IMG/VR virus record: IMGVR_UViG_644736364_000008
DNA length: 64,000 bases
Reading direction: 5' to 3' (one strand)
Source of the DNA: a virus
Lineage: Duplodnaviria; Heunggongvirae; Uroviricota; Caudoviricetes
The notes below the pieces were generated by a model. The model saw only the letters and a program-made list of their open reading frames with translations. It was not told the origin of the DNA and searched no databases. Shown here piece by piece: positions 23,935-63,054 of this stretch. Every line of letters begins with the position of its first letter. Position 1 is the stretch's first letter. The position numbers and the translations under genes are program-made.

Positions 23935-24759
<825 letters not shown>

Positions 24760-24956: not shown

Positions 24957-25097
24957 TGATTGTTTTTTATGCGGAGAAATACCGGGGAATAATTGGGGTA
25001 AAACACCTTTAGGCTATTCACTTAGCCTACCACCATCAAAATCTTTCCGAATGTATCCATCTCTTTTTTCTTATGCAGCTAAAACGAAGTCTTGATA

Positions 25098-25141
25098 CTG
25101 TTTATTTACACAGATAAGAATAATACTGTCTACAAACGCAG
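25098..25141 (+). promoter_or_regulatory. Two LexA boxes (one exact, one with one mismatch) upstream of a DinI-like remnant
   Basis: ctgtttatttacacag (CTGT-N8-ACAG) and ctgtctacaaacgcag. Confidence 0.5.
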
Positions 25142-25156
25142 TACAAAAGAAGTGTT

Positions 25157-25335
25157 ATGCGTATTGAGATCTCCATAGCCAAAGACAAAATGACCAAATG
25201 CCAAACGGCGCTGTGGACGCGTTAAAGGAAGAATTAACCCAACACATTGGCAAGCGTTATGACGATGTGGAGATGATCGTAAAAGCCACCAGCAACGATA
25301 GTTTTTCAGTTAGACATACTGCAGATAAAGATTGA
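25157..25335 (+). pseudogene. DinI-family gene disrupted by a frameshift
   Basis: Frame 1 gives [14 protein letters not shown] then stops; a second frame starting at 25198 gives [38 protein letters not shown] (DinI-like core). Confidence 0.45.
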
Positions 25336-25759
25336 GCTAAAACTTTCGTTCAGGAAACTCTGAATGATACCTGAGAGTCTACTGAAGAGTTGTTTGTTCA
25401 CTAGTTAGCACGTAGGAAATCATTCAATACTCGCACTATCGGAAGTTCACCAGCCAGTCGTAGCACGTCCTTGCAAACGACGTGCCTACGGTTTCAATCA
25501 CCTCTCACCATCAATTCTATCAATAATAATTAAACAGCGCCTAGACAAAATAAATAACAACAAGTCAACAACCTCGACAGGATGCCGATGGGATGATGAA
25601 GAGATAAGAAAGAATAACCAGTAAAGCCCTAAAACGTCAGCGTTCAGACGCGTTTTTTACTTAATCGGTAACAAATACGTTGTATCATAGCAAAATAAAA
25701 TGATTGTTCTAAATCAGATTAACTCCTCACTTTTGTACAATGTCGCTTACAGGTATACC

Positions 25760-27649
25760 ATGAAATCCGAGACGCTAACTGTCCAACAACTTTTTCAAGA
25801 CCGCCGACAATACTGTGTTCCATTCTATCAACGTGCCTATGTATGGACTCAGCAAGACCAGTGGTCAGCTCTACTGGAGGATATCCTAGAGAAAGTACAA
25901 TCCCGGCTCTCGGGTACAAAACCAACTCCCCATTTCCTTGGTGCGGTTGTACTGGAACCTCAATCAAAAAAAGGATTATTAGGTGTAGATTCCATACATA
26001 TTATTGATGGTCAGCAACGATTGACCACTCTTCAATATGTTCTGGCATCCATCCGATTAGCATTACGTGCTACGGATCTTTCCAGCTTAGAGGCTCTCAT
26101 TTCGCCTTGCCTGAAAAACTCAAACGAAGACACAATGCGAAATAAAGAAGTAGAACGCTTCAAACTGTGGCCAACTTTTCGGGATCAAACTCATTTTATT
26201 CAAAGTTTTAATGTTGAAAATATTGACGATCTCCGGGACGTATTCTCTGATAGTTTCACGCAGCATGGTACGTTGCGTAAGCATTTTAATCACCCGCCAT
26301 CACTAGAAGCATTATGTTTTTTTACTGAAGCCTTTATAAAATGGATTAAAATAGAAAACCACTCACCACAAGAAAATGCTGTAGCTCTAATTGAGGCTGT
26401 CTTAACAGATCTGAAACTGGTAAGCATATTTCTCGAAGCTGAAGATGATGCCCAAATAATTTTTGAAACATTAAATGGGCGAGGGGCGGAACTTCATGCT
26501 ACGGATCTTATTCGCAACTATATCTTTATGTGCGCTGAGCATGAAAATATTAATGCTATTGAATTATATGAAAATGAGTGGAAGAGCTTTGAAGATAAAT
26601 ACTGGTCGGAAAAACAACGCCGTGGACGTATTAATAAACCACGCATGGAGTGGCTAGTACATGCGACATTGCAATCAGAAAGGCAACGTGAAATTGATCT
26701 GTCTCGCCTTTACAATGAGTATCGTGATTATGTAAGTAAGGACTTGTCTTCACAACGAGCAGATCTGCAAGTAAAGCGCCTCAAACAATATGCATCACAA
26801 TATAAAGAATTGGTTGATGGTTTTGGCACAACCCCCATCTCACACTTTGGATATCGCATCGCAGACTATGATGTGACGACACTTTATCCGCTTGCTTTGT
26901 TCATTTCGATAGCTAACATCGCTGATGATGAGAAAGCAGCCATGTATAATGATCTTGTCTCCTACGTAGTACGAAGAGCCGTATGTGGCCTGACGCCAAA
27001 GAATTACAACAATGTATTTATGAATGTATTGCGGCACTTGGCTAAAACGGAAATTTCCAGTGTTGAGTTACGTAATATCCTCAATAACTTAAATGGCGAA
27101 GCCTCACGTTGGCCTGGTGACTCAGAATTTCTCAACGCTTGCATCAATGCTCCACTTTATCCTGGCAGGCTCGACGCACCGAAAATGCGCTCAATGTTAA
27201 CGGAACTTGAAAGAGAACTTTGTCGCCAAGTAAAGACAGAAAAGCCTGATGTTCCAAATCTTTCTAATCTCGATATCGATCATCTTATGCCTCAAAGTTG
27301 GTATTCCTGTTGGCCTCTCGAAAATGGTCGTATGGTGACAAATTCAGATGCTACGGTATTGAACCAAATTGTTCTGTCTGGAACCGATCTTACCCCTGAA
27401 CAGCTACTGGTAAGGAAACGGCAACAAGCGATATCTACTTTGGGAAATCTAACTTTGCTTAACCTTAGCGTAAACCGTTCTGTTCAGAATGCTGTATTTC
27501 TGAAAAAACGTGATGCTCTCATCGTCCACACCAATCTACGACTGAACATTCCACTTATAGTTAAGGATAAATGGGATGAGGATGAAATCCTGGAGCGGGG
27601 TAAAAAGTTGGGGGAAATTGCATTGAAAGTATGGCCAAAACACGATTAA
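25760..27649 (+). CDS. GmrSD-family type IV (modification-dependent) restriction endonuclease-like protein (DUF262 + DUF1524/HNH)
   Basis: N-terminal IIDGQQRLTT motif and C-terminal DIDHLMPQSW...GNLTLLNLSVNRSVQN His-Me finger; alternative ATG at 25700. Confidence 0.8.
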   Translation: MKSETLTVQQLFQDRRQYCVPFYQRAYVWTQQDQWSALLEDILEKVQSRLSGTKPTPHFLGAVVLEPQSKKGLLGVDSIHIIDGQQRLTTLQYVLASIRLALRATDLSSLEALISPCLKNSNEDTMRNKEVERFKLWPTFRDQTHFIQSFNVENIDDLRDVFSDSFTQHGTLRKHFNHPPSLEALCFFTEAFIKWIKIENHSPQENAVALIEAVLTDLKLVSIFLEAEDDAQIIFETLNGRGAELHATDLIRNYIFMCAEHENINAIELYENEWKSFEDKYWSEKQRRGRINKPRMEWLVHATLQSERQREIDLSRLYNEYRDYVSKDLSSQRADLQVKRLKQYASQYKELVDGFGTTPISHFGYRIADYDVTTLYPLALFISIANIADDEKAAMYNDLVSYVVRRAVCGLTPKNYNNVFMNVLRHLAKTEISSVELRNILNNLNGEASRWPGDSEFLNACINAPLYPGRLDAPKMRSMLTELERELCRQVKTEKPDVPNLSNLDIDHLMPQSWYSCWPLENGRMVTNSDATVLNQIVLSGTDLTPEQLLVRKRQQAISTLGNLTLLNLSVNRSVQNAVFLKKRDALIVHTNLRLNIPLIVKDKWDEDEILERGKKLGEIALKVWPKHD

Positions 27650-49658: not shown

Positions 49659-49809
49659 ATGAATAGCCGCAGTTTCGCCTCCGACAGAAAATCGGAGCGT
49701 GAAATGATATGTTGATTTATTATTAATTCGAAAATTACATTCTAATTCATCAGGCATTGATGATTTTATAATAATAAAGGCCGTTCGTTACGGCCTTTAT
49801 TATTGATAT

Positions 49810-50145
49810 TTATTTTACATCCCAAGGTAGTTCCTCAAGAGAGAAGACTAATTCATTATCAATAATTTCGTATTCTGCATAACCTTCAACCTCTCCTGAG
49901 AAGTTATTGTCAACGCATCCTTCATAATAGCTATATGGTGCTATAAAGTGAAACCCATATTCATCTATCTCTGTGATTTCAAAATTGTAGTAATCGTAAG
50001 AATATCGAATATCATCATCAGAAATAGAACTAAGTACATAGTTATTAAATTTATCGGAATGCTTAACGATAAGTTCTGACAACGCGTCAAGATTCTCTGG
50101 AGAGATATTTCCTAACGGTAATCTGTACTCAACGGCATTAATCAT
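49810..50145 (-). CDS. Highly acidic AT-rich cargo protein (111 aa) between Q/tR' and the holin
   Basis: Low-GC ORF rich in D/E/Y in the late-operon leader position. Confidence 0.6.
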   Translation of the reverse strand: MINAVEYRLPLGNISPENLDALSELIVKHSDKFNNYVLSSISDDDIRYSYDYYNFEITEIDEYGFHFIAPYSYYEGCVDNNFSGEVEGYAEYEIIDNELVFSLEELPWDVK

Positions 50146-50197
50146 ACAACCTCCTTTTTAACTGATATGAGGTTATATAATGTGTTTCAGTACAAGT

Positions 50198-50224
50198 AAA
50201 TAAAAACCCGCTCAACAGCGGGTT
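50198..50224 (-). terminator. tR'-like terminator downstream of the late promoter
   Basis: Minus-strand aacccgc-tgttga-gcgggtt followed by TTTTTAT. Confidence 0.5.
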
Positions 50225-50330
50225 CGTGAAAATTATCAACGGCAGACATACAAAGCCCATCGTTGAGAAAATCTTATCCATATTTTTTGAAAAATGCAAG
50301 CTTCATGTCACTATCTTCGGCGAAAATCAC

Positions 50331-51083
50331 TTATCTCGTCACCTTTCTCAATTGTGTTTCAGCATATGCTTCTTCCTGCCAGCACTTTGTTACTAGTTTA
50401 TCAATTACGTCTGCATATCCTTTGTACCACTGATAATCAGTCAGGTCTGGAACCAGCTTCTGGACATGACGTCGTGCCAGTGTAGTCGGTAAACGGCTAA
50501 ACCGGTTTCCATTGCAACGCCCACAAGTCTTATAAACAGGCGTGCCATGAAGCCGGGTTCTTTTTTCATCCAGGACAATACCTTTACCCTTACACCCTCT
50601 GCACGCCGTGCTGACTTCTCCCTTGCCATGACAATGCTGACACAGTTCCTTCACCCACTCTTCTTTGATAACGGATTCCCCGCTTCTGGAATGTTTCACC
50701 ACTTCGCGCAATACATTATGAAATCCAGTACCAGTACAATGCTCACAGCGAGCCTTACTTGCCGCAGACCTGGAATAATCAGCAAAGGCAAAATTCACAA
50801 GGTAAGGGATGATCTGTAACCGGGTTTCTTCACTCAATTTGTTCAATGTCGGGTTATCCAGTGCCATCGCGTAATTGAGCAGGCCTTCAATCGCAAACTG
50901 AGGATCCTGAACACCAACTTTTGCCAGGAATAAGGCAAACCCAAGCGGTGCTTTCGACTGCACCATCCCCTGCGCAGCCATTACATCCGTAATTGTTAAA
51001 CCACCCGAGCCTGTCGCCGATGCGTCATCGCTCAATTTTGGAGATTTTGGGGAGTAATATTTCGGTAAGGCTTCAAGGTTCAT
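50331..51083 (-). CDS. Late antiterminator Q-like protein (start at MNLEALP)
   Basis: CxxC/HC...CxxC zinc-binding pattern; SD ggaga upstream; directly upstream of late region. Confidence 0.65.
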   Translation of the reverse strand: MNLEALPKYYSPKSPKLSDDASATGSGGLTITDVMAAQGMVQSKAPLGFALFLAKVGVQDPQFAIEGLLNYAMALDNPTLNKLSEETRLQIIPYLVNFAFADYSRSAASKARCEHCTGTGFHNVLREVVKHSRSGESVIKEEWVKELCQHCHGKGEVSTACRGCKGKGIVLDEKRTRLHGTPVYKTCGRCNGNRFSRLPTTLARRHVQKLVPDLTDYQWYKGYADVIDKLVTKCWQEEAYAETQLRKVTR

Positions 51084-51096
51084 GCTCGTTCTCCAC

Positions 51097-52092
51097 TTAC
51101 ACCAGTACGCCAATTGCCAGCGCACGATCGATAAAACGAAATATCAGCTCCAGCTGGGAGCCATACATCTCTTCAAATGCCACGGTATCCGCATGCAGCT
51201 CGTCGTGATGCTTTCTGCACAAAGGCAACACAAAAAGGTCATGCGCTTTTGTACCCATTCCACCCTGTCCGTGGCCTATCAGGTGGTGGGGATCATCAGC
51301 GGGCTTTCCACAACATGCACACGACTGTGTCTTAACCCAGCGCGTGTACTTTTCATTAACCCAGCGGCGACGTTTTGGGCGTAACATAAAAGACTCCGGC
51401 GACTCCGGATCCACTTTCAGCGCCAGCACCTTTTTCGCCTTATCCTGGATGATGCTGGTGGCAGGAACCGAAGGCACAAGGTCACTTTCCCGGGTGACAG
51501 ACGGCACAACAGGCTTCGGTAATCTCAGTGCCTTACGGGCTGCACTTTCCGGTAAGGCATCCGCCAGATCATTACGAACCAGCCACCAGCACAGTTCCGG
51601 CATTGTCACAACGTGACTGTCATCAAAACCGAGATCCCGACGCACGACAGACAACACCCAGCGGGCACAGTTATCCGTTGCCATTGATTCCAGCCGTTCC
51701 GTGAACTGATCGCGAAGCAGGTTATCGCAGTGCCAGCACAGACGGATTGCGCCCGGCGCGTGTCGCATTGTGGTCATGTTCTCGCTGTGCCATCCGGAAT
51801 GAGGCCACTGACAGCCCTTTTCACGAAGTAACCAGCTTTCAAGACATTCCACACCCCCCGCACGACGAATAACTGCCTCATTGCGGAACACGGCCCGAAT
51901 GGCAGGATCATCCGCCAGCGGTTGTGATGCCGCCGGAACGGCACCACTGGCAAAAGATGAATAACGTTCCGGCTCAGGCTCCAGCAGGACACGCCCCTGC
52001 ATAAACAGGGGCATCAGCTCTGAACCGGGCCTGAACAATACGATCCCCATACGCGGGGCAATTTCAGGGGTCAGTAGTGCTCTCACGGTCAC
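51097..52092 (-). CDS. DUF968-like lambdoid prophage protein
   Basis: 331 aa with C-terminal Cys/His-rich region; typical lambdoid nin-region position. Confidence 0.5.
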   Translation of the reverse strand: MTVRALLTPEIAPRMGIVLFRPGSELMPLFMQGRVLLEPEPERYSSFASGAVPAASQPLADDPAIRAVFRNEAVIRRAGGVECLESWLLREKGCQWPHSGWHSENMTTMRHAPGAIRLCWHCDNLLRDQFTERLESMATDNCARWVLSVVRRDLGFDDSHVVTMPELCWWLVRNDLADALPESAARKALRLPKPVVPSVTRESDLVPSVPATSIIQDKAKKVLALKVDPESPESFMLRPKRRRWVNEKYTRWVKTQSCACCGKPADDPHHLIGHGQGGMGTKAHDLFVLPLCRKHHDELHADTVAFEEMYGSQLELIFRFIDRALAIGVLV

Positions 52093-52093
52093 C

Positions 52094-52891
52094 TCAATGA
52101 ACGGTATCGAGCAGCTTTAACAGCTCAGGGAATCGGGATTCGAAGAAATGCGGCTGCGTCTCGCGCGGATTTGCAGGACTGGTGATGTTCTTGCCGAACA
52201 TGCAGCCTTTCGCCGTCAGCGACCAGAATTTTTTGATGTTGTTAATCGCTGTACGGCTGTATCGTTCGCGCTGTTCGACGATCCCCAGCTTCGCCATCTG
52301 GTGATATGCCTGATTAGCCGTAAGGCGGATACCATACTGTTTCAGCAGTGCACTCAGCGACAGTGTCGGGCGACTTGAGCCATCAGGCGCGTCAGCAGGA
52401 GCATCAATGGCATAGCGCGGTGCCAGATTCGGTAAGCCAACAGCCTCCTGAAGCTTCTGACAGGCTCCAAGCACTGATGAGTTAGACAGGTTTAATTCCC
52501 GGCGCATAAAGTCCAGCAGGATCACGCCAGCCTGCATCTTGTCAGCAGCCTGCCCGGATAATTTTTCCGGTGTGCTGGTTACCATATCGAAAGTACGGAT
52601 CACCTTCAGATGGAATGACGGGCTTATCCACATTGCATAGGCATACACCAGTTCTTTGCAGACATACGTCCCCTGGTTATTTCCGCCACGAATAACGTTA
52701 ACTGGCTCTATATTGACCGAGTTGCAAATCTGCAACTCGCTTATTAAACGTTCAGTTTGCTCATTGCGGAGCCAGAATGCAGGCTTATGCTTATCCAGAG
52801 AACCGGCAGCCCTGTGCAGATCGTTCAGGCTGTAACGCCCATAAGCATCACGACGAACTTCAATACCATCAATAACCATCAGATTATTCAT
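52094..52891 (-). CDS. KilA-N domain protein
   Basis: N-terminal MVIDGIEVRRDAYGRYSLNDL pattern typical of KilA-N. Confidence 0.55.
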   Translation of the reverse strand: MNNLMVIDGIEVRRDAYGRYSLNDLHRAAGSLDKHKPAFWLRNEQTERLISELQICNSVNIEPVNVIRGGNNQGTYVCKELVYAYAMWISPSFHLKVIRTFDMVTSTPEKLSGQAADKMQAGVILLDFMRRELNLSNSSVLGACQKLQEAVGLPNLAPRYAIDAPADAPDGSSRPTLSLSALLKQYGIRLTANQAYHQMAKLGIVEQRERYSRTAINNIKKFWSLTAKGCMFGKNITSPANPRETQPHFFESRFPELLKLLDTVH

Positions 52892-52910
52892 ACTTCGTTT
52901 CTCCTCTTAA

Positions 52911-53300
52911 TCAGGCAGCTGCACCCGCCGTTTTCTCGTACTTACTGATAGTGATCTCGACCTTCCCTTCCGGGATAACCGGTCCCCACTCCACCAGCAT
53001 TCTTTTCACCTGACTGTCGTCTTCCCACACACCCGCGTGGGTCAGGGCGTCAAACAGCGCCTTGTTATAGTTGTCCAGATCGCGGATCCGGTTATCCGGA
53101 GGAAACAACACGATCTCCACTGAAGCAGGTGCCGACGTTGGTTTTGGCAGACGACGTAACTGCTCAACTATTGCTGCACACGCCGCGCTCTGGAATTTGC
53201 GCCCCGCCGCGCTTATCAGGCTCTTACCAGCAAACGCCCCTTTGTTGGGGTGTCGCCAGTACGTGTTCACGCTGGGCGGAAACGGCAGAATCAGCTTCAT
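52911..53300 (-). CDS. rusA: RusA Holliday-junction resolvase
   Basis: 129 aa, MKLILPFPPSVN N-terminus characteristic of RusA. Confidence 0.8.
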   Translation of the reverse strand: MKLILPFPPSVNTYWRHPNKGAFAGKSLISAAGRKFQSAACAAIVEQLRRLPKPTSAPASVEIVLFPPDNRIRDLDNYNKALFDALTHAGVWEDDSQVKRMLVEWGPVIPEGKVEITISKYEKTAGAAA

Positions 53301-53623
53301 ACTTTCAGGCCCCTCTCATGTAACCAGTGGGCTGCACGCAGCCTGGCGTTTTCCTTACCGGCAAGCAGTGAGCGGATAATCCCGACCGCCTCGCTGTCGT
53401 CGTCCTTCACCGCGGTATGAAGAGTGATACCCCGGGCCACGCCACGCTTTATCGTGATGACGCCTTTTTTCTCCAGTGCTCGAAGATGCTCCACCGCTGC
53501 ATTCACTGAACGGTATCCCAGCATGGTTGCCACCTCCTGATTGGTTGGCGGGAAGCCACGTTCTTTCTGATAAGAAATCAGCATATCCAGCACCTGCTGC
53601 TGGCATTGAGTTAACGTCGTCAT
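53297..53623 (-). CDS. LexA N-terminal DNA-binding-domain homologue (no protease domain)
   Basis: QQQVLDMLISYQKERGFPPTNQEVATMLGYRSVNAAVEHLRALEKKGVI closely parallels the LexA winged helix. Confidence 0.55.
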   Translation of the reverse strand: MTTLTQCQQQVLDMLISYQKERGFPPTNQEVATMLGYRSVNAAVEHLRALEKKGVITIKRGVARGITLHTAVKDDDSEAVGIIRSLLAGKENARLRAAHWLHERGLKV

Positions 53624-54273
53624 GCCGCCATCTCCCTGAGCAGTTTTTCCGCCTGCTGGCGAACCTGCGCCAGAAACGCCTCACCACATGCCTCAAGTTC
53701 ATCGCGCCCGATGTAGCTGATTGCCGGTCCCTTCCAGGTCTTGTCAAAAACAGCAATAGCACCAGCGAAGAAAGCTCCTGTCGGCACCTGCTTCTCGTCT
53801 TTCGGGATAAACCAGACAGGCAGTTCAAAACCAATACGCCCGCGAATAAAAGCAATATGATCTGCATCTTCCGGCCACCACACTTCGCTGGTGGCAGCTT
53901 TGATCAGGAAAACATAGCGCCCGCCTTTATCACGCATGGCACTGGCATGCTTCATGATGTAACGCATGCCGGTGATGTATTGCCCCTCATGCTGACTGGC
54001 GCGGCTGTATGGGGGATTACCAAAGGCAGCACCTTTAAGCTCCGCAAGACGTTCTGACCAGTCATGCGCCAGCGCATTGTCTTCCGCCGTGTAATACGCG
54101 GCACATTTGGCGTTACCACCGTCGGTGAACAGATCCAGAACAAACGGGCCAAACAGGGTGTTAATTCCCCAGAAAATGTTGTCCGGCGTGCGCCACTGAT
54201 CGCCCACTTCCTTCAGTTCATGGGCTGGTTTGTTCCGCAGCTCCACCAGCGCCTGGCAATATTTATTACTCAT
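53620..54273 (-). CDS. Phage N6-adenine DNA methyltransferase
   Basis: NPPY motif (GNPPYS); start at MSNKYCQ overlaps upstream stop. Confidence 0.75.
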   Translation of the reverse strand: MSNKYCQALVELRNKPAHELKEVGDQWRTPDNIFWGINTLFGPFVLDLFTDGGNAKCAAYYTAEDNALAHDWSERLAELKGAAFGNPPYSRASQHEGQYITGMRYIMKHASAMRDKGGRYVFLIKAATSEVWWPEDADHIAFIRGRIGFELPVWFIPKDEKQVPTGAFFAGAIAVFDKTWKGPAISYIGRDELEACGEAFLAQVRQQAEKLLREMAA

Positions 54274-54767
54274 TAAGCCCCCACGTAATTCCCTGACAGA
54301 TACCACTCTTCACCCGATGCAGCGCGCTTGCTGCTTTTCCGTAAGCACCGCTCACGACGCGCCAGAAAATTGTTTCGTTCTGGCTGGGAGTGGCTTTCAC
54401 GGAATGCCGCCATCCACACGGTTGCAGCACGACGGTATAAACCCCTGGACTCCAGTTCTTCAGCCTGGCGGGTCAGGCACAAAATCACCCGTGGATCGTT
54501 AGTGCCGACATAGAAATTGCGCACAGGTCTGGTTTCTCGAACTGGTTGTGGTTCCGGTTCCTGCGCTCTCTCAGTCAGGCGCGGGAAATGTCTGCGTGTA
54601 TCTCCTTCACAACGGTGAGCCACACGCCCACTCTGACGTAACTTGCTTGCTGACTGCAGAACGCGCTGTCGTGAGTAACCTGCAAAAGCATCCGCAATGT
54701 CACCGGAAGTACACCCCGGATGGGCTTCAATGAATTTCTGAACGTCATTTAACAGACTCATGATCAC
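54273..54767 (-). CDS. Hypothetical winged-helix protein (164 aa), replication-region
   Basis: ORF coupled between the O-like gene and the methyltransferase. Confidence 0.45.
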   Translation of the reverse strand: MIMSLLNDVQKFIEAHPGCTSGDIADAFAGYSRQRVLQSASKLRQSGRVAHRCEGDTRRHFPRLTERAQEPEPQPVRETRPVRNFYVGTNDPRVILCLTRQAEELESRGLYRRAATVWMAAFRESHSQPERNNFLARRERCLRKSSKRAASGEEWYLSGNYVGA

Positions 54768-55705
54768 CCCCTGAATCCTGCCGGGATCTGGCTGTAGTCC
54801 ACGTTGTCGTAACTGGCTTTGAAGTACGGGTCCTCGCGTTTTTCGGTGTACGTACTTACGGACGGCGATAAGCGCAGGGAAAGCTCATCCCATTTTTCCC
54901 GCAGCTTCGACGGGCTGAGCACGTTACGGCACCAGAACGGATCGCGGCTGACGCGGCTGTACATCTCGCAGATTTGTTTGTGAGTACGACCATCCTGCAC
55001 ACACATCAGGCGAATTTCGTTTGCCCAGGCTGTCCAGTTCGGTTCTTTGGGACGAACCACCTCGCCGTCACATTCGGCAGCCTGCTCGTACAGGGCGATG
55101 ATTTTTTTCCAGAGCCACTGTGCGCAGGTCAAATCATCCTGCGTTCCCCACTGGCGCTTTTTAGGGCTGAATACAACAGCATCAGGATGGCGAGTTAAAA
55201 ACTCCTGTTCAGCCGTCTGCGTGTCCGGTTGCGAAGCGTCCGGACGAGAAGTTTTTTTATCTGACGGATCATGTTTTGATTTTACTGACGGATCCCCGCC
55301 AGATTCTGACGGGTGAAAACCCGCTTTTTTGCCAGATTTCGACGCATCAAATTTTGACGGGGCAGATTTTGATGCGTCAGATTTTGACGGGTCAGAATCT
55401 GACAGTTGAGAAAATGCCGCTGCCTGAAGCTTCGCAACGTTAAGCTGATAAACATTCGACGCATTGCGGTTACCCTGGCGACGCGCCTTACGCGTTAACC
55501 AGCCTTCTGCTTCCAGCCGTGCGATAGCCGTTCTGACGGTACTCATCCCCGCGCCAATCTGGCGGGCAATGGTTTCAATTGATGGCCAGCACACACCTTC
55601 GTCATTACTGAAATCAGCCAGGCGGGCCATAATTGCCACGCTGGATAACTTCATGCCTGACGCAGCGCAACCATCCCATACATAGCCGGTTAATTTAGTG
55701 CTCAT
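54764..55705 (-). CDS. Replication initiator O-like protein
   Basis: 313 aa; N-terminal wHTH; iteron array inside the coding sequence. Confidence 0.65.
   Translation of the reverse strand: MSTKLTGYVWDGCAASGMKLSSVAIMARLADFSNDEGVCWPSIETIARQIGAGMSTVRTAIARLEAEGWLTRKARRQGNRNASNVYQLNVAKLQAAAFSQLSDSDPSKSDASKSAPSKFDASKSGKKAGFHPSESGGDPSVKSKHDPSDKKTSRPDASQPDTQTAEQEFLTRHPDAVVFSPKKRQWGTQDDLTCAQWLWKKIIALYEQAAECDGEVVRPKEPNWTAWANEIRLMCVQDGRTHKQICEMYSRVSRDPFWCRNVLSPSKLREKWDELSLRLSPSVSTYTEKREDPYFKASYDNVDYSQIPAGFRG
55262..55410. repeat. Iteron array (about seven degenerate direct repeats), putative origin
   Basis: Repeated (a/g)attttgacgg / agattctgacgg units within the O-like gene. Confidence 0.6.
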
Positions 55706-55714
55706 GACCGACCT

Positions 55715-56053
55715 CTATTTCCCTGAATTTACGACGAAACTGTTCGAGCGGACTGAAGCATTCATGCTCATAGCCTTCGCGGAGGTAGATAACCCGTTGT
55801 GTTTCCGGTTCCCAACGAATGACTCTGACGGGCACTCCGTAGTGATCTTTGAACCAGCGGTTAACTTGTCGCAAAGGACTGTCTCCTTCTGCCGGTTGAA
55901 ATCACCCACAGCCCACTCAGCAAAGCTGTGGGTTACAATTTCCCTGTCACCTGGTACATTTACTGCATAGCAATACTCCACCTTCGCTTTTCCACCCGGT
56001 ACAGGAAGCGCAATCAGTTGCGAGCGACGGTAGTGTGTTGTTAAACTGTTCAT
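55715..56053 (-). CDS. Hypothetical early protein (112 aa; e14 YmfM-like by size and position)
   Basis: ORF between the CII-position gene and O-like gene. Confidence 0.4.
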
Positions 56054-56613
56054 GCGTTAGTTTCTCCACAGTCACGACACGCCACGGCGCCCGGAGCTGC
56101 ACACTCGCGGGCGTCACTACTTTCTGAAACGCAAAAGATTTTGTAGACCAGTGCTGCATGCTCCTGCAGCTTCGAAATTGAGAGGTACAGCTCATCGTTA
56201 ATTGCTGTCTTCTCATGCGGTTCCACTACACCGTCTTCAATTGCTGAACGAATCTGTTTTGAATAACTGCCGATCTGTTCAATGACCTCCAGCAGGCGTT
56301 GGTTGATATCGGCGTTGTCCACATCCTCGACGTCAGGAAGAGACACAAAGACGCCATTTGCAGACTGCGCCACAGCATCAGCAATGAAGTGAGTGCCACC
56401 AGCACGCTGTAAAACCATTGCCCATCCCAGCGGGAAAATCTGATCGCCATCTGCACGAAGGCGGTTGAATAAAGCGTTTTCTGTTACATCGAGCCAGTCA
56501 GCCGCTTCAGCGTAACCACCCGGCAACGCCGCGATCGTTTTTCTGACAGCTTTCACGTACCACTCAGGCTGTTTTTCTATTTTCCAGTGATGCTTACCCA
56601 CGATTAGCCTCAT
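56050..56613 (-). CDS. CII-position regulatory protein (187 aa; e14 YmfL-like)
   Basis: First large gene after cro in the rightward early operon. Confidence 0.45.
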
Positions 56614-56644
56614 CGTTCTGTGGTTAAAAATTGAAAGTGTTCTG

Positions 56645-56845
56645 CTAATCTTTCGGATAGATATCCGGTCTTAAGTCAGATTTCGTAATTGCACCTGACG
56701 TGCATTGCTCAAGTTTTTTAGCCAGCACAAAACTGGCTTTTTTATAGCCATTGAAAACCAGCCGTAAGTAGCCAGGTGTTGAGCCAACTTTTCCGGCCAA
56801 CTCGCCCTGCTGTTCTTTGGTTAAAGAGTCCCAATACGCTTTCAT
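56645..56845 (-). CDS. cro: Cro-like repressor (66 aa; start at MKAYWDS)
   Basis: SD ggagg upstream of ATG at 56845; divergent from the repressor. Confidence 0.6.
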   Translation of the reverse strand: MKAYWDSLTKEQQGELAGKVGSTPGYLRLVFNGYKKASFVLAKKLEQCTSGAITKSDLRPDIYPKD

Positions 56846-56935
56846 ACAATGTGTACCTCCGGTGTACATATTACATGATTGAAATGAACCTTCAAGATAC
56901 TTGTACCTTAACGGTACAAGGGTTTTAATTTCGTT
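56846..56935. promoter_or_regulatory. Immunity operator/promoter region
   Basis: Perfect palindrome cttgtacc-ttaac-ggtacaag and related tgtacc/ggtaca half-sites between cro and repressor. Confidence 0.55.
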
Positions 56936-57610
56936 ATGAAAACAATCCATGACATCCGGCGGTCTAACGCCAGAAAACTGAGAGATGGTGTTGGCGGGAA
57001 TTCTTCCTTTGCCACTATGATTGATCGCGAGCCAACCCAGACCAGCAGGTTTATGGGAGATGGTGCTACTAAAAATATCGGTGACAGCATGGCACGACAC
57101 ATCGAAAAATGTTTCGACCTGCCTGTCGGATGGCTCGATCAAGAACACCAGACAACGAACATCACAAAAAAACCTGATGTTTCAATCACTAATAAACAAA
57201 TCACATTAGTCCCTGTCATATCATGGGTACAGGCCGGAGCATGGAAAGAAGTTGGATATTCTGAGGTTGATTTGAGCACAGCAGAAACGTATCCCTGCCC
57301 TGTACCCTGTGGGGAAATGACTTATATCTTGCGGGTGATAGGTGATTCAATGATTGATGAGTACCGCCCGGGAGACATGATTTTTGTCGATCCTGAAGTA
57401 CCTGCCTGCCACGGTGACGACGTTATTGCATTGATGCACGATACAGGTGAAACCACCTTCAAAAGGTTGATAGAAGATGGGACACAGCGTTATCTCAAAG
57501 CGTTAAACCCAAACTGGCCTGAGCCTTACATTAAGATCAACGGTAATTGCTCTATAATTGGTACTGTGATTTTCTCAGGAAAACCAAGAAGATACAAAAT
57601 CAAAGCCTAA
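56936..57610 (+). CDS. cI: CI-like immunity repressor with S24 (LexA-like) autopeptidase domain
   Basis: 224 aa; N-terminal HTH; C-terminal GDSM (Ser) and FKRL (Lys) motifs. Confidence 0.8.
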   Translation: MKTIHDIRRSNARKLRDGVGGNSSFATMIDREPTQTSRFMGDGATKNIGDSMARHIEKCFDLPVGWLDQEHQTTNITKKPDVSITNKQITLVPVISWVQAGAWKEVGYSEVDLSTAETYPCPVPCGEMTYILRVIGDSMIDEYRPGDMIFVDPEVPACHGDDVIALMHDTGETTFKRLIEDGTQRYLKALNPNWPEPYIKINGNCSIIGTVIFSGKPRRYKIKA

Positions 57611-57622
57611 TCAATGTTTATG

Positions 57623-57646
57623 AACCTGCTTCGGCAGGTTTTTTTA
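57623..57646 (+). terminator. Rho-independent terminator after the repressor gene
   Basis: aacctgc-ttcg-gcaggtt followed by TTTTTTT. Confidence 0.6.
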
Positions 57647-57812
57647 TACTTGACAATGTACCTTTGGGATACATAATGTACCCAAGAGAAACAACAAACA
57701 GGCAGGACGCCCACGAAGTAGCCGCCTGGGGCATATGAAGTCCAGGATGATTCGTTAGCAACAAAAAAGCGCCCTATAGGACGCTTCGCTCTTTAACAAT
57801 CTGGATGACTTA

Positions 57813-58325
57813 TTACTCAGATTTGAACTTTGGTTCTGGCAAAAGAGGAGGAGTTGAGTCCTCGAATCGTAGCCAGTGCTCCCAGATATCGTGGGATTGT
57901 AATTCCAGAAGACCAATTTGACGTGATGCAACTGCAGTGCCAGCTATAGTTCCTCCTGCATAATCAACCTGGACGGACTTTGACGCTTTCTCAATTAATT
58001 CTGTCCAAGCTTCACTTTCCGCGTTAAAAGAAGCAGTTAATTCCTGCAGACGCTGTGGATCATCCTTGTTGTCTTGTTTCAAACGATTCAGGGCGGCCAC
58101 CGAATACTTATTCTTAACCCAACTAACCTGAGCTAACTGAACTCTCTGACAAGCGTCCATATCAGTAGTTGTTTCCTGAGGCATATCAAAGCAGGAAATA
58201 AAAAAAGTCTCAACACCATCATTTAGACTACTGCTCGGCTGGTTCAAAGCATCAGAAGCATTGGATGCTATCGGTATTATCAGTGCTACCGACAGAATCA
58301 AACGTTTAACATAAATCGCTCCCAT
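57813..58325 (-). CDS. Secreted protein of unknown function (170 aa)
   Basis: N-terminal signal peptide; moderately AT-rich. Confidence 0.55.
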   Translation of the reverse strand: MGAIYVKRLILSVALIIPIASNASDALNQPSSSLNDGVETFFISCFDMPQETTTDMDACQRVQLAQVSWVKNKYSVAALNRLKQDNKDDPQRLQELTASFNAESEAWTELIEKASKSVQVDYAGGTIAGTAVASRQIGLLELQSHDIWEHWLRFEDSTPPLLPEPKFKSE

Positions 58326-58793
58326 TTAATTATCCCCTCTAAGAACAGAGTCATCCAGATTAGCCGAATCCTTGTTGTTGGGGAATAACCAGGCCCACCT
58401 CGCCTGATGTGGCTAAAAGCAGGCACATAACAGCTAAGTATTTTCAACCAGAGAGAATCCTTAGCGTTGTGGTGAATGCGGCTCAGCGCACGCGGGTTAA
58501 GGTTGAGGCTGACAGTCGACCTTCTGTGGATACCCACCCGCCTGGTGTGCAACCTTCGCCAGGCACCGGGAGGCACCCGGCACCACAACTTTATGCTGTG
58601 TGTAGTCCTGGCGGTACCAGCTTGTACCCTTGCTTCCGGCTGGTACCGCTCTTTTTACAAAACAGAGAAGAGCATCACCGGACGACGGGCTCATAACCCA
58701 ATCCACCCGGGCGGCTGCCACCGCAGGTGTTCTTCTCTGTTTTGTGGAGAAACCAACCGACCTTGCAGGGTCGATATGATGAGGAGCAGCAAA

Positions 58794-61714: not shown

Positions 61715-61921
61715 ATGCTGAACCTCGATTGTGTTCCTATCTCAACTTATTGCAAAGAAACTGGCGAAACTCCTGAAGCAATAAACAAACGTGTACAGCG
61801 CGGTGTTTGGCGTGAAGGTGTTCAGGTTTTAAAGGTTGAAGGCGTTAAGGAGAGGTGGATTGATCTTAGTGAGGTTGCAAAATGGGCCAGACAAAACTGC
61901 TCAAACTACCGCGCGGCGTAA
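61715..61921 (+). CDS. xis: Excisionase (Xis)
   Basis: Small basic protein (VQRGVWREGVQVLKVEGVKERWIDLSEVAKWARQ) overlapping the int start. Confidence 0.6.
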   Translation: MLNLDCVPISTYCKETGETPEAINKRVQRGVWREGVQVLKVEGVKERWIDLSEVAKWARQNCSNYRAA

Positions 61922-63054
61922 CAATCAGGAAACACCACCAGGGAGAAACGATCAATATAACTTTCACCTACAAAGGAGTTAGATGTCGTGAGCCGCTTTC
62001 CAATCTGGAAGTAACACCAAAGAACATTAAATACGCCGAGCGTACACTCGGCGAAATCCATAATAAGATCGAAAGGGGAACATTCATTTATGCAGAATAT
62101 TTTCCCCGTTCTGCTCGTTTGAAAATTTTTGGTAATGCTGCTGCAAGCAAAACGGTAAAGATGTACCTGGACGAATATCTTGAAATCTGCGAAACAAGAA
62201 AACTTTCACCCTCTACGATTGGTGGCTATAAAAAATGCCGTAGTGCGTTAGCCTCACTTCACATTTGCCCTGCAAGTGAATTAACACCAGCAACCCTGAA
62301 AGCGTGGATTCAAAGCCAGAAAACAACCTTAAAAACCATTCGCAACCAGTTATCTTTCCTACGGTCAGCACTTGATGAAGCCGTGACCGATGGGGTACTT
62401 CAAATTAACCCCGTATCGTTAGTAACAGCTTCGCGCTACCAAAGTGATAAGTCAGAAGCAGAAAGCAGCTATGTGGTTGATCCGCTATCACCAGCAGAAG
62501 TTGATGCATTACTAGCAGCAGCCGGAAACAAACAATGGGAAAATCTGTTCCGGTTCGCCATACATACAGGCCTGCGTAGTTCTGAATTATGTGCCCTACG
62601 ATGGCATGATATCGACTTTGTTGGAAAAACAGCCCATGTTCAGAGCGCAAGTGTTGTCGGAGTTATCAAAGGAACAAAGACAAAAGCCGGTACCCGTAAA
62701 GTTGAACTGACTGAAGAAGCAATGTTGGCGTTGATAAACCAGAAGCCATTTACATTCATGAAGGATGCTACTGTCTTTGAAGATCCAAAGACCAATAAAC
62801 CCTGGGCAAGTGCTGATGCAATTAGGAAAAAAGCATGGGTGCCAACATTGCGAAAAGCAGGTATTCGTTACAGAAACCCATATCAAACCAGGCATACATT
62901 CGCCACCAGCCATATCAGCCGGGGAGCAAACCTGTTTTGGCTTGCGGCTCAAATGGGCCATAAAGGGCCTGAAATGTTATTCAGGCACTATGGACAATAC
63001 TTGAAAGAGTATGATGGGAGGGCAAGTATCAAGGATAAAAAGGCTTTATTTTAA
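61882..63054 (+). CDS. int: Tyrosine integrase (lambda Int family)
   Basis: 390 aa; C-terminal TRHTFATSHI...GH...LFRHY catalytic motifs. Confidence 0.9.
   Translation: MGQTKLLKLPRGVTIRKHHQGETINITFTYKGVRCREPLSNLEVTPKNIKYAERTLGEIHNKIERGTFIYAEYFPRSARLKIFGNAAASKTVKMYLDEYLEICETRKLSPSTIGGYKKCRSALASLHICPASELTPATLKAWIQSQKTTLKTIRNQLSFLRSALDEAVTDGVLQINPVSLVTASRYQSDKSEAESSYVVDPLSPAEVDALLAAAGNKQWENLFRFAIHTGLRSSELCALRWHDIDFVGKTAHVQSASVVGVIKGTKTKAGTRKVELTEEAMLALINQKPFTFMKDATVFEDPKTNKPWASADAIRKKAWVPTLRKAGIRYRNPYQTRHTFATSHISRGANLFWLAAQMGHKGPEMLFRHYGQYLKEYDGRASIKDKKALF

Follow-up and report, generated by a model that had tools for sequence, protein, structure and literature searches.

A LexA-type DNA-binding head with a helical hairpin in place of the protease domain: a candidate RecA-independent operator binder in the early-right operon of an SfV-like prophage

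LexA dimerises via its C-terminal domain, and the base-contacting residues of its helix 3 are listed as S39, N41, A42, E44 and E45 (PMC3091678). Across LexA lineages, the sequence of helix 3 tracks, and determines, the motif specificity of LexA (PMC4951493). The only characterised truncated-LexA protein from a phage is gp6 of the Bacillus thuringiensis tectivirus GIL01, a truncated LexA homologue. The palindromic site bound by gp6, GaCACAnnTGTGaC, differs from the host LexA box and overlaps the -35 element of the late promoter P3, which gp6 activates (PMC6182141). For the enterobacterial family of proteins built on a LexA DNA-binding domain (LexA-DBD), a literature search found no functional study, only annotation-level mentions; a comparative Stx-phage paper merely lists a pfam01726 pham labelled 'LexA family transcriptional regulator'.

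A member of this enterobacterial family, 108 residues long, is encoded in a 64,000-nucleotide stretch of viral DNA (IMG/VR record IMGVR_UViG_644736364_000008), the whole of which is referred to here as the window. The gene belongs to an SfV-like prophage that spans roughly 28.8-63 kb of the window (Table 1). In a Pfam search, residues 1-65 of the protein aligned with positions 1-65 of the 65-position LexA_DNA_bind profile (PF01726) with an E-value of 2.9e-19 and 69 bits, so that the whole domain is covered at a score well above the gathering cutoff of 23.7 bits. The top PDB sequence match is the DNA-binding domain of E. coli LexA (1lea, E 7e-16), and full-length LexA is also among the best matches (E about 1e-15). 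The NCBIfam LexA equivalog TIGR00498 is matched only over positions 1-91 of 203, with 69 bits against a cutoff of 111. The same Pfam search gave no match to Peptidase_S24, the chain ends at residue 108, and both the Ser/Lys catalytic pair and the S24 dimerisation domain of bona fide LexA are absent.

The presence of a LexA winged-helix head and the absence of the S24 protease domain are thereby confirmed, with a match far beyond chance. The original prediction, which had described by eye a LexA-type N-terminus that stops before the S24 domain, is upheld by the formal alignment, which is strong and shows 51% identity to the E. coli DNA-binding domain. The accompanying picture of a bare domain is correct as to a LexA head that lacks the protease, but it leaves out the C-terminal tail, about 33 residues that form a conserved helical hairpin. 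The whole protein, residues 1-108, aligns with positions 1-106 of the 106-position profile PHROG 362 ('transcriptional repressor') with an E-value of 5.9e-59.

An AlphaFold model of the monomer, built from an alignment of ten family members, has a mean pLDDT of 82 and a pTM of 0.58. The winged-helix elements of the model are helices 6-22, 28-35 and 40-52 and wing strands 56-58 and 66-68, and this N-domain superposes on the LexA-DNA complex 3jso with an rmsd of 0.9 Å over 67 residues at 51% identity (Foldseek). In the tail, modelled helices 75-87 and 91-103 form the hairpin, for which a fold search returned no counterpart; searched by sequence, the 32-residue tail had zero PDB matches up to E 10. 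In family alignment A3, hairpin residues A97 and L101 stay unchanged in every member, down to 39% identity. It is proposed from the model that the hairpin serves as a dimerisation or partner-binding module, and the placement of the winged helix relative to it is uncertain at a pTM of 0.58. A winged helix joined to a small helical module is a common layout of dimeric repressors.

The segment 'LLAGKE' of the phage protein aligns with 'VAAGEP' of LexA, which holds the Ala-Gly cleavage site. A LexA cleavage site in the tail, cuttable in trans by LexA or CI, was considered and rejected: the Ala-Gly pair varies among distant family members, and the model makes the segment helical. Elsewhere, three proteins (P0126, P0135 and P0138) carry two tandem LexA DNA-binding domains per chain, without an S24 domain. 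These would in effect be covalent 'single-chain dimers', an arrangement that fits heads acting pairwise on palindromes. A fourth two-domain match, P0144, contains an internal repeat that is exact, and this protein may result from an assembly error.

Helix 3 is the segment of the protein best conserved with LexA, with 10 of 14 positions identical to the E. coli helix (sequences in Table 1) versus 51% over the whole domain. Four of the five base-contacting residues (S39, N41, A42 and E45) are kept, and E44 is replaced by Val. Because these four contacts are kept, binding of SOS-box-like sites without RecA control is plausible, and the residues make recognition of a CTGT-type half-site plausible as well. 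Alignment A3 contains no Glu at position 44 and has invariant wing residues R64 and G65; of the 26 LexA-sized proteins closest to the family profile, 12 have Glu at position 44. In some distant members of the family E45 or A42 is altered too, so that binding specificity may have shifted.

Across 51 distinct alleles, pN/pS is 0.045 for the whole gene, 0.009 for codons 1-69 and 0.12 for codons 70-108. The coding sequence is under strong purifying selection, which is extreme in the DNA-binding domain and constrains the tail as well. Of 5426 complete E. coli genomes, 2232 (~40%) contain the same DNA, and the gene occurs in phages SfV, SfII, SfIV, mEp460, mEp390 and cdtI and in several Stx2a, Stx2c and Stx2k phages. 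A profile search of 1.8 billion representative proteins recovered full-length relatives with the same tail at 39-48% identity; relatives fall in a length class of 104-118 aa, with some called longer. Matches in BFVD show that LexA-domain proteins of the stand-alone kind are common among phages.

The LexA-DBD gene is thus genuine and very widespread, and it is not a new discovery: thousands of genomes already have it annotated, under public labels such as 'LexA-like protein', 'LexA family transcriptional regulator' and 'LexA DNA binding domain protein'. What is new here is the linker and conserved hairpin, the purifying selection, the 4-bp overlaps with both neighbours and the placement in the early-right operon. 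Among public records, several phage entries mislabel the protein as 'SOS-response repressor and protease LexA', and the adjoining Dam-like methylase is mislabelled 'phosphoadenosine phosphosulfate reductase' in RefSeq phage records.

The gene lies between the replication genes and antiterminator Q and is translationally coupled to both of its neighbours. The TGA stop codon of the methylase gene overlaps its ATG by 4 bp (ATGA, 53620-53623), and the rusA ATG overlaps its stop codon by the same margin (ATGA, 53297-53300). Q is followed downstream by a promoter-like site and a terminator, and no promoter-like site was seen directly upstream of the LexA-like gene. Because of this operon structure and the lack of such a site, the gene is most likely delayed-early: off in the lysogen and switched on once the phage is induced or infects. 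Given its position in the repressed early-right operon, any occupation of LexA boxes by the protein would therefore most likely be confined to those stages and would not take place in the resting lysogen. The order LexA-like, (RusA), (KilA-N or Ant), DUF968, Q is held in relatives down to 39% identity, and the upstream neighbour is variable.

Table 1. Coordinates of the LexA-like gene and its parts, of its prophage neighbours and of candidate SOS-controlled sites. Positions refer to the window unless a locus is named.
Feature	Position	Strand	Basis or remark
Integrase	61882-63054		
S24-type repressor, the prophage's own	56936-57610		
CII-like gene	56050-56613		
Replication protein	54764-55705		
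PerC-like gene	54273-54767		
Dam-like N6-adenine methyltransferase, upstream neighbour	53620..54306	-	PF05869, E 6e-45
GGAG Shine-Dalgarno	53632..53635	-	8 nt upstream of the ATG, within the 3' end of the methylase gene
LexA-DBD-plus-hairpin gene	53297..53623	-	ORF, ATG to TGA, 108 aa; stop TGA at 53297-53299
LexA-type winged helix-turn-helix	codons 1-68 = 53420..53623	-	AlphaFold model, Foldseek, pN/pS
Recognition helix SVNAAVEHLRALEK	codons 39-52 = 53468..53509	-	alignment with E. coli LexA SPNAAEEHLKALAR
Flexible acidic linker	codons 69-75 = 53399..53419	-	pLDDT below 50 at residues 71-75
Family-specific helical hairpin	codons 76-108 = 53300..53398	-	AlphaFold model, family alignment
RusA Holliday-junction resolvase, downstream neighbour	52911..53300	-	PF05866
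KilA-N	52094-52891		
DUF968	51097-52092		
Antiterminator Q	50331-51125		
Tandem SOS boxes	13332-13351 (23.5 bits) and 13317-13336 (14.0 bits)		upstream of DinI-like ORF; putative target
DinI-like ORF, P2-like element	12858-13163	-	PF06183, E 1.3e-22
Tandem SOS boxes	25096-25115 (19.1 bits) and 25124-25143 (11.7 bits, just under the training range)		putative target
Frameshifted DinI-like remnant, downstream of the 25096-25143 boxes	about 25156-25335	+	
Distant-clade SOS-box cluster regions	L011:4530-5357; L120:4297-5327; L116:1503-2512; L136:3536-5393		

SOS boxes were sought with a position-specific scoring matrix (PSSM) made from 28 E. coli LexA sites, the lowest training score of which is 11.9 bits, and with the pattern CTGT-N8-ACAG. 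Only four PSSM sites in the window score at or near the training range, and all of them lie before its two DinI-like genes. The original prediction had placed LexA boxes at these genes, and tandem boxes do precede both (13317-13351 and 25096-25143). The first DinI-like ORF, just downstream of a P2 gpA-like replication gene (13797-15884), appears to belong to a P2-like element and to be an SOS-inducible gene of the DinI or Tum kind. A local similarity of 18 bits links this ORF to the LexA-like profile (helix 3, wing and tail); it was set aside as chance, as the three other DinI sequences compared do not show it. Around the second pair of boxes, a GIY-YIG protein gene lies nearby at 23935-24741, and a GmrSD-family type IV restriction gene (25700-27649; PF03235, PF07510) follows the DinI-like remnant. 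This region may be a defence hotspot beside an SOS-controlled promoter.

Within the SfV-like prophage itself, no SOS box scores in the training range; the best candidate (52472-52491, 9.0 bits) is inside the kilA-N gene. Similarly, in the clade of the window an SOS box lies within 900 bp upstream of the LexA-like gene in 0 of 80 viral loci. If SOS boxes are what the protein reads, its targets would therefore be host genes or other prophages. Window positions 49800-58400 hold no convincing or notable intergenic inverted repeat of the operator kind.

A de novo palindrome search over 14 diverged module loci recovered the SOS box ACTGT-N8-ACAGT in six of them, compared with at most four in shuffled controls, and no other non-coding palindrome recurred across these representatives. 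This lack of other shared palindromes speaks weakly against a separate phage operator. Two further repeats from the search were discarded: one that recurs in the replication gene is not non-coding, and 'CAGCA-N5-TGCTG' lies inside the LexA-like gene and reflects coding conservation.

In the distant clades P0131 and P0137, an SOS box of at least 17 bits lies 466-677 bp upstream of the LexA-like gene in 26 of 29 loci, and many of these boxes are near-consensus (27-29 bits, e.g. TACTGTTTATTTATACAGTA). The box is placed within a sigma-70-like promoter; in locus L120, TTGACC is followed by 17 nt and then the box, and in L011 a terminator is followed by the promoter and SOS box. Behind the box, a cluster on the same strand comprises a DinI-like gene, an ORF of ~80 aa that is conserved and has no Pfam match, the LexA-like gene, a 67-aa ORF, (RusA), DUF968 and Q. 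In the L127, L135 and L136 clusters, a RecA gene replaces the DinI-like gene. The truncated LexA of these clades is thus apparently SOS-induced and travels with known SOS modulators, an association seen in loci that are mutually related, come from few lineages and do not count as independent observations. The layout would fit RecA-independent feedback on SOS promoters. In L011, Q may itself be under LexA control, since the terminator precedes the SOS-box promoter.

SOS boxes were also seen at two other kinds of gene in related phages. In phages of the window clade (L081:1546-1565 and L077:2429-2448), a 24.7-26.4-bit box lies in the coding sequence of a 230-aa CI-type repressor, at the part that encodes its linker; another repressor, without this internal box, is found in the window prophage. 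At an N6/N4 DNA methyltransferase gene downstream of Q, a 21-23-bit box, TACTGTAAAAATAAACAGTG, overlaps or directly precedes the start codon (L072:9918-9937, L081:11000-11019, L011:7739-7758). This arrangement is found in ~20 related phage loci and is absent from the window.

The explanation that best fits these observations, with a probability that we put at about 0.4, is a working phage gene whose product, a dimeric LexA-type operator binder immune to RecA, re-occupies SOS-box-like sites during lytic growth. The 108-aa protein would be produced after induction or infection, as the operon suggests. Judging from the monomer model, the hairpin would pair two subunits, and the dimer would then grip CTGT-type SOS-box-like palindromes in the fashion of LexA. 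Because it has no cleavage domain, the protein would persist on these boxes while RecA* destroys host LexA. As a result, repression would probably return during lytic growth to the SOS promoters of the host and to genes under SOS control in other prophages of the cell, the candidate examples in the window being the two DinI-like genes at 12858-13163 and 25156-25335. Counting against this explanation are the replacement of E44 throughout alignment A3, the lack of an SOS box near the gene in its own clade, and the example of gp6, which reads a site unlike its host's LexA box and acts as an activator.

A more far-reaching version of this explanation holds that ~40% of complete E. coli genomes carry a natural 'uncleavable LexA' that re-occupies SOS boxes under RecA* and so blocks both the host SOS response and rival prophages. 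In the distant clades, an SOS promoter would then drive its gene along with DinI-like or RecA genes. The rivals blocked would be prophages, the P2-like element of the window among them, whose induction goes through an antirepressor or DinI-like gene under LexA control. Such a protein would give a phage direct, DNA-level control over the SOS regulon. This broad version is rather unlikely.

The alternative that competes most closely with SOS-box binding is a phage-specific transcription factor with an operator of its own, comparable to GIL01 gp6, which might for instance time the late, kilA-N or Q genes without any involvement of SOS boxes. Besides the precedent of gp6 itself, a truncated LexA homologue that activates late genes from its own site, this alternative draws on the family-wide replacement of E44, on the variable recognition helix of distant members, and on PHROG 362 and GenBank records that speak of a transcriptional repressor or regulator. 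Yet the recognition helix of the window protein has stayed near that of host LexA, the SOS box is the sole recurrent non-coding palindrome over the diverged loci, the prophage shows no notable intergenic inverted repeat in the region searched, and the late region is already served by the Q antiterminator with its promoter-like site and terminator downstream. A dedicated phage operator is therefore possible, if doubtful. A DNA-binding accessory that works with RusA in recombination or replication, for example by targeting or modulating the resolvase, and that is not a transcription factor, would be suggested by gene order: rusA lies directly downstream, usually with the 4-bp overlap, in relatives of 39-48% identity, the adjacency is kept in most family clades, and it was seen in 115 loci among those examined. 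Weak matches to winged-helix replication proteins point the same way (DnaD_N, E 0.15; PHROG 678, O-like, E 0.0085). However, nin-region genes of lambdoid phages are often packed with overlaps without sharing a function, so the overlap need not mean joint action; RusA is missing from the module in the L116, L120, L136 and L140 types, in which the LexA-like gene persists; and a structure-specific role would have no need of the conserved base-reading residues. A partnership with RusA is accordingly improbable.

The remaining explanations have still less in their favour. The protein had also been suggested to act as a dominant-negative partner, which would form mixed dimers with host LexA and poison or alter it. 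The shared DNA-binding domain is the only support for this suggestion. LexA N-terminal fragments reportedly cooperate on DNA (Kim and Little, 1992), and if they do, mixed occupancy of a single box is conceivable. Against it, the tail of the phage protein matches no solved structure by sequence, and the family does not preserve the Ala-Gly pair that lines up with the cleavage site of LexA. Because the C-terminal domain by which LexA dimerises (PMC3091678) is missing from the 108-aa protein, the suggestion is unsupported and a dominant-negative role is very unlikely. Finally, the shortness of the protein relative to LexA, and records that over-annotate it as the complete repressor and protease, might suggest that a full-length repressor gene of the LexA or CI type is decaying here to a remnant without function. 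Such a remnant would not be expected to show the low pN/pS given above, a length and architecture conserved down to 39% identity, translational coupling, a good Shine-Dalgarno sequence and presence in the viable phages SfV, SfII and mEp460. On account of the selection and conservation data, a pseudogene is effectively excluded.

Should the protein bind SOS boxes, as favoured here, the induction of these very common E. coli and Shigella prophages (SfV, SfII, mEp460, cdtI and several Stx2 phages) would rewire the SOS response from within, with a possible reach that includes mutagenesis, filamentation, colicin release, SOS-linked defence genes and prophage competition in multi-prophage strains. 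It would also provide a natural test of how much LexA function resides in the DNA-binding domain alone. If an operator of the phage itself is bound instead, the protein would be a second, independent case, after GIL01 gp6, in which a phage has turned a LexA head into a regulator. Under either reading, the label 'SOS-response repressor and protease LexA' is wrong for this gene.

Compared with E. coli LexA (1lea, 3jso), the phage protein has a winged helix that is 51% identical and superposes within 0.9 Å, with S39, N41, A42, E45, R64 and G65 common to both, and a flexible acidic linker follows the wing in each. In contrast, LexA continues into an S24 domain with Ser119 and Lys156, whereas the phage protein has a hairpin of ~33 residues in its place and Val instead of E44. 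Moreover, the gene is part of a phage's early lytic operon and lacks its own SOS box.

By analogy, the closest characterised counterpart of the 108-aa protein is GIL01 gp6, which, as described, likewise has a truncated LexA-type head without an S24 domain. The two proteins come from different phage and host lineages and are set side by side on the description of gp6; tectivirus LexA-domain proteins gave a weak fold match to the model (E 5e-3, 30% identity). The C-terminal extension of gp6 is 14 residues long, forms the wing and contains no helical hairpin. Unlike gp6, the phage protein has a recognition helix near that of host LexA, no phage site was found for it in the window or across the 14 diverged loci, and the late genes of its prophage are under the Q antiterminator.

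LexA(Ind-) mutants such as G85D and S119A (1jhf, 1jhh) would offer a functional analogy, as RecA*-proof LexA-type binders that keep SOS genes off. They are full-length point mutants with normal C-terminal dimerisation, whereas the phage protein is natural and short and has a different tail. In BlaI/MecI-type repressors, too, a small all-helical module lies C-terminal to a winged helix, and 1okr and 1xsd appeared as weak full-length Foldseek matches. They nevertheless belong to a different winged-helix family, with no significant similarity in sequence or structure (rmsd 7.5-9.6 Å).

DinI-like proteins and GIL01 gp7 are comparable in the proposed outcome, in which a mobile element damps the host SOS response, and in the distant clades the LexA-like gene lies beside DinI-like or RecA genes. 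The point of contact would differ: DinI-like proteins and gp7 contact RecA* or LexA, whereas the 108-aa protein would act directly on DNA.
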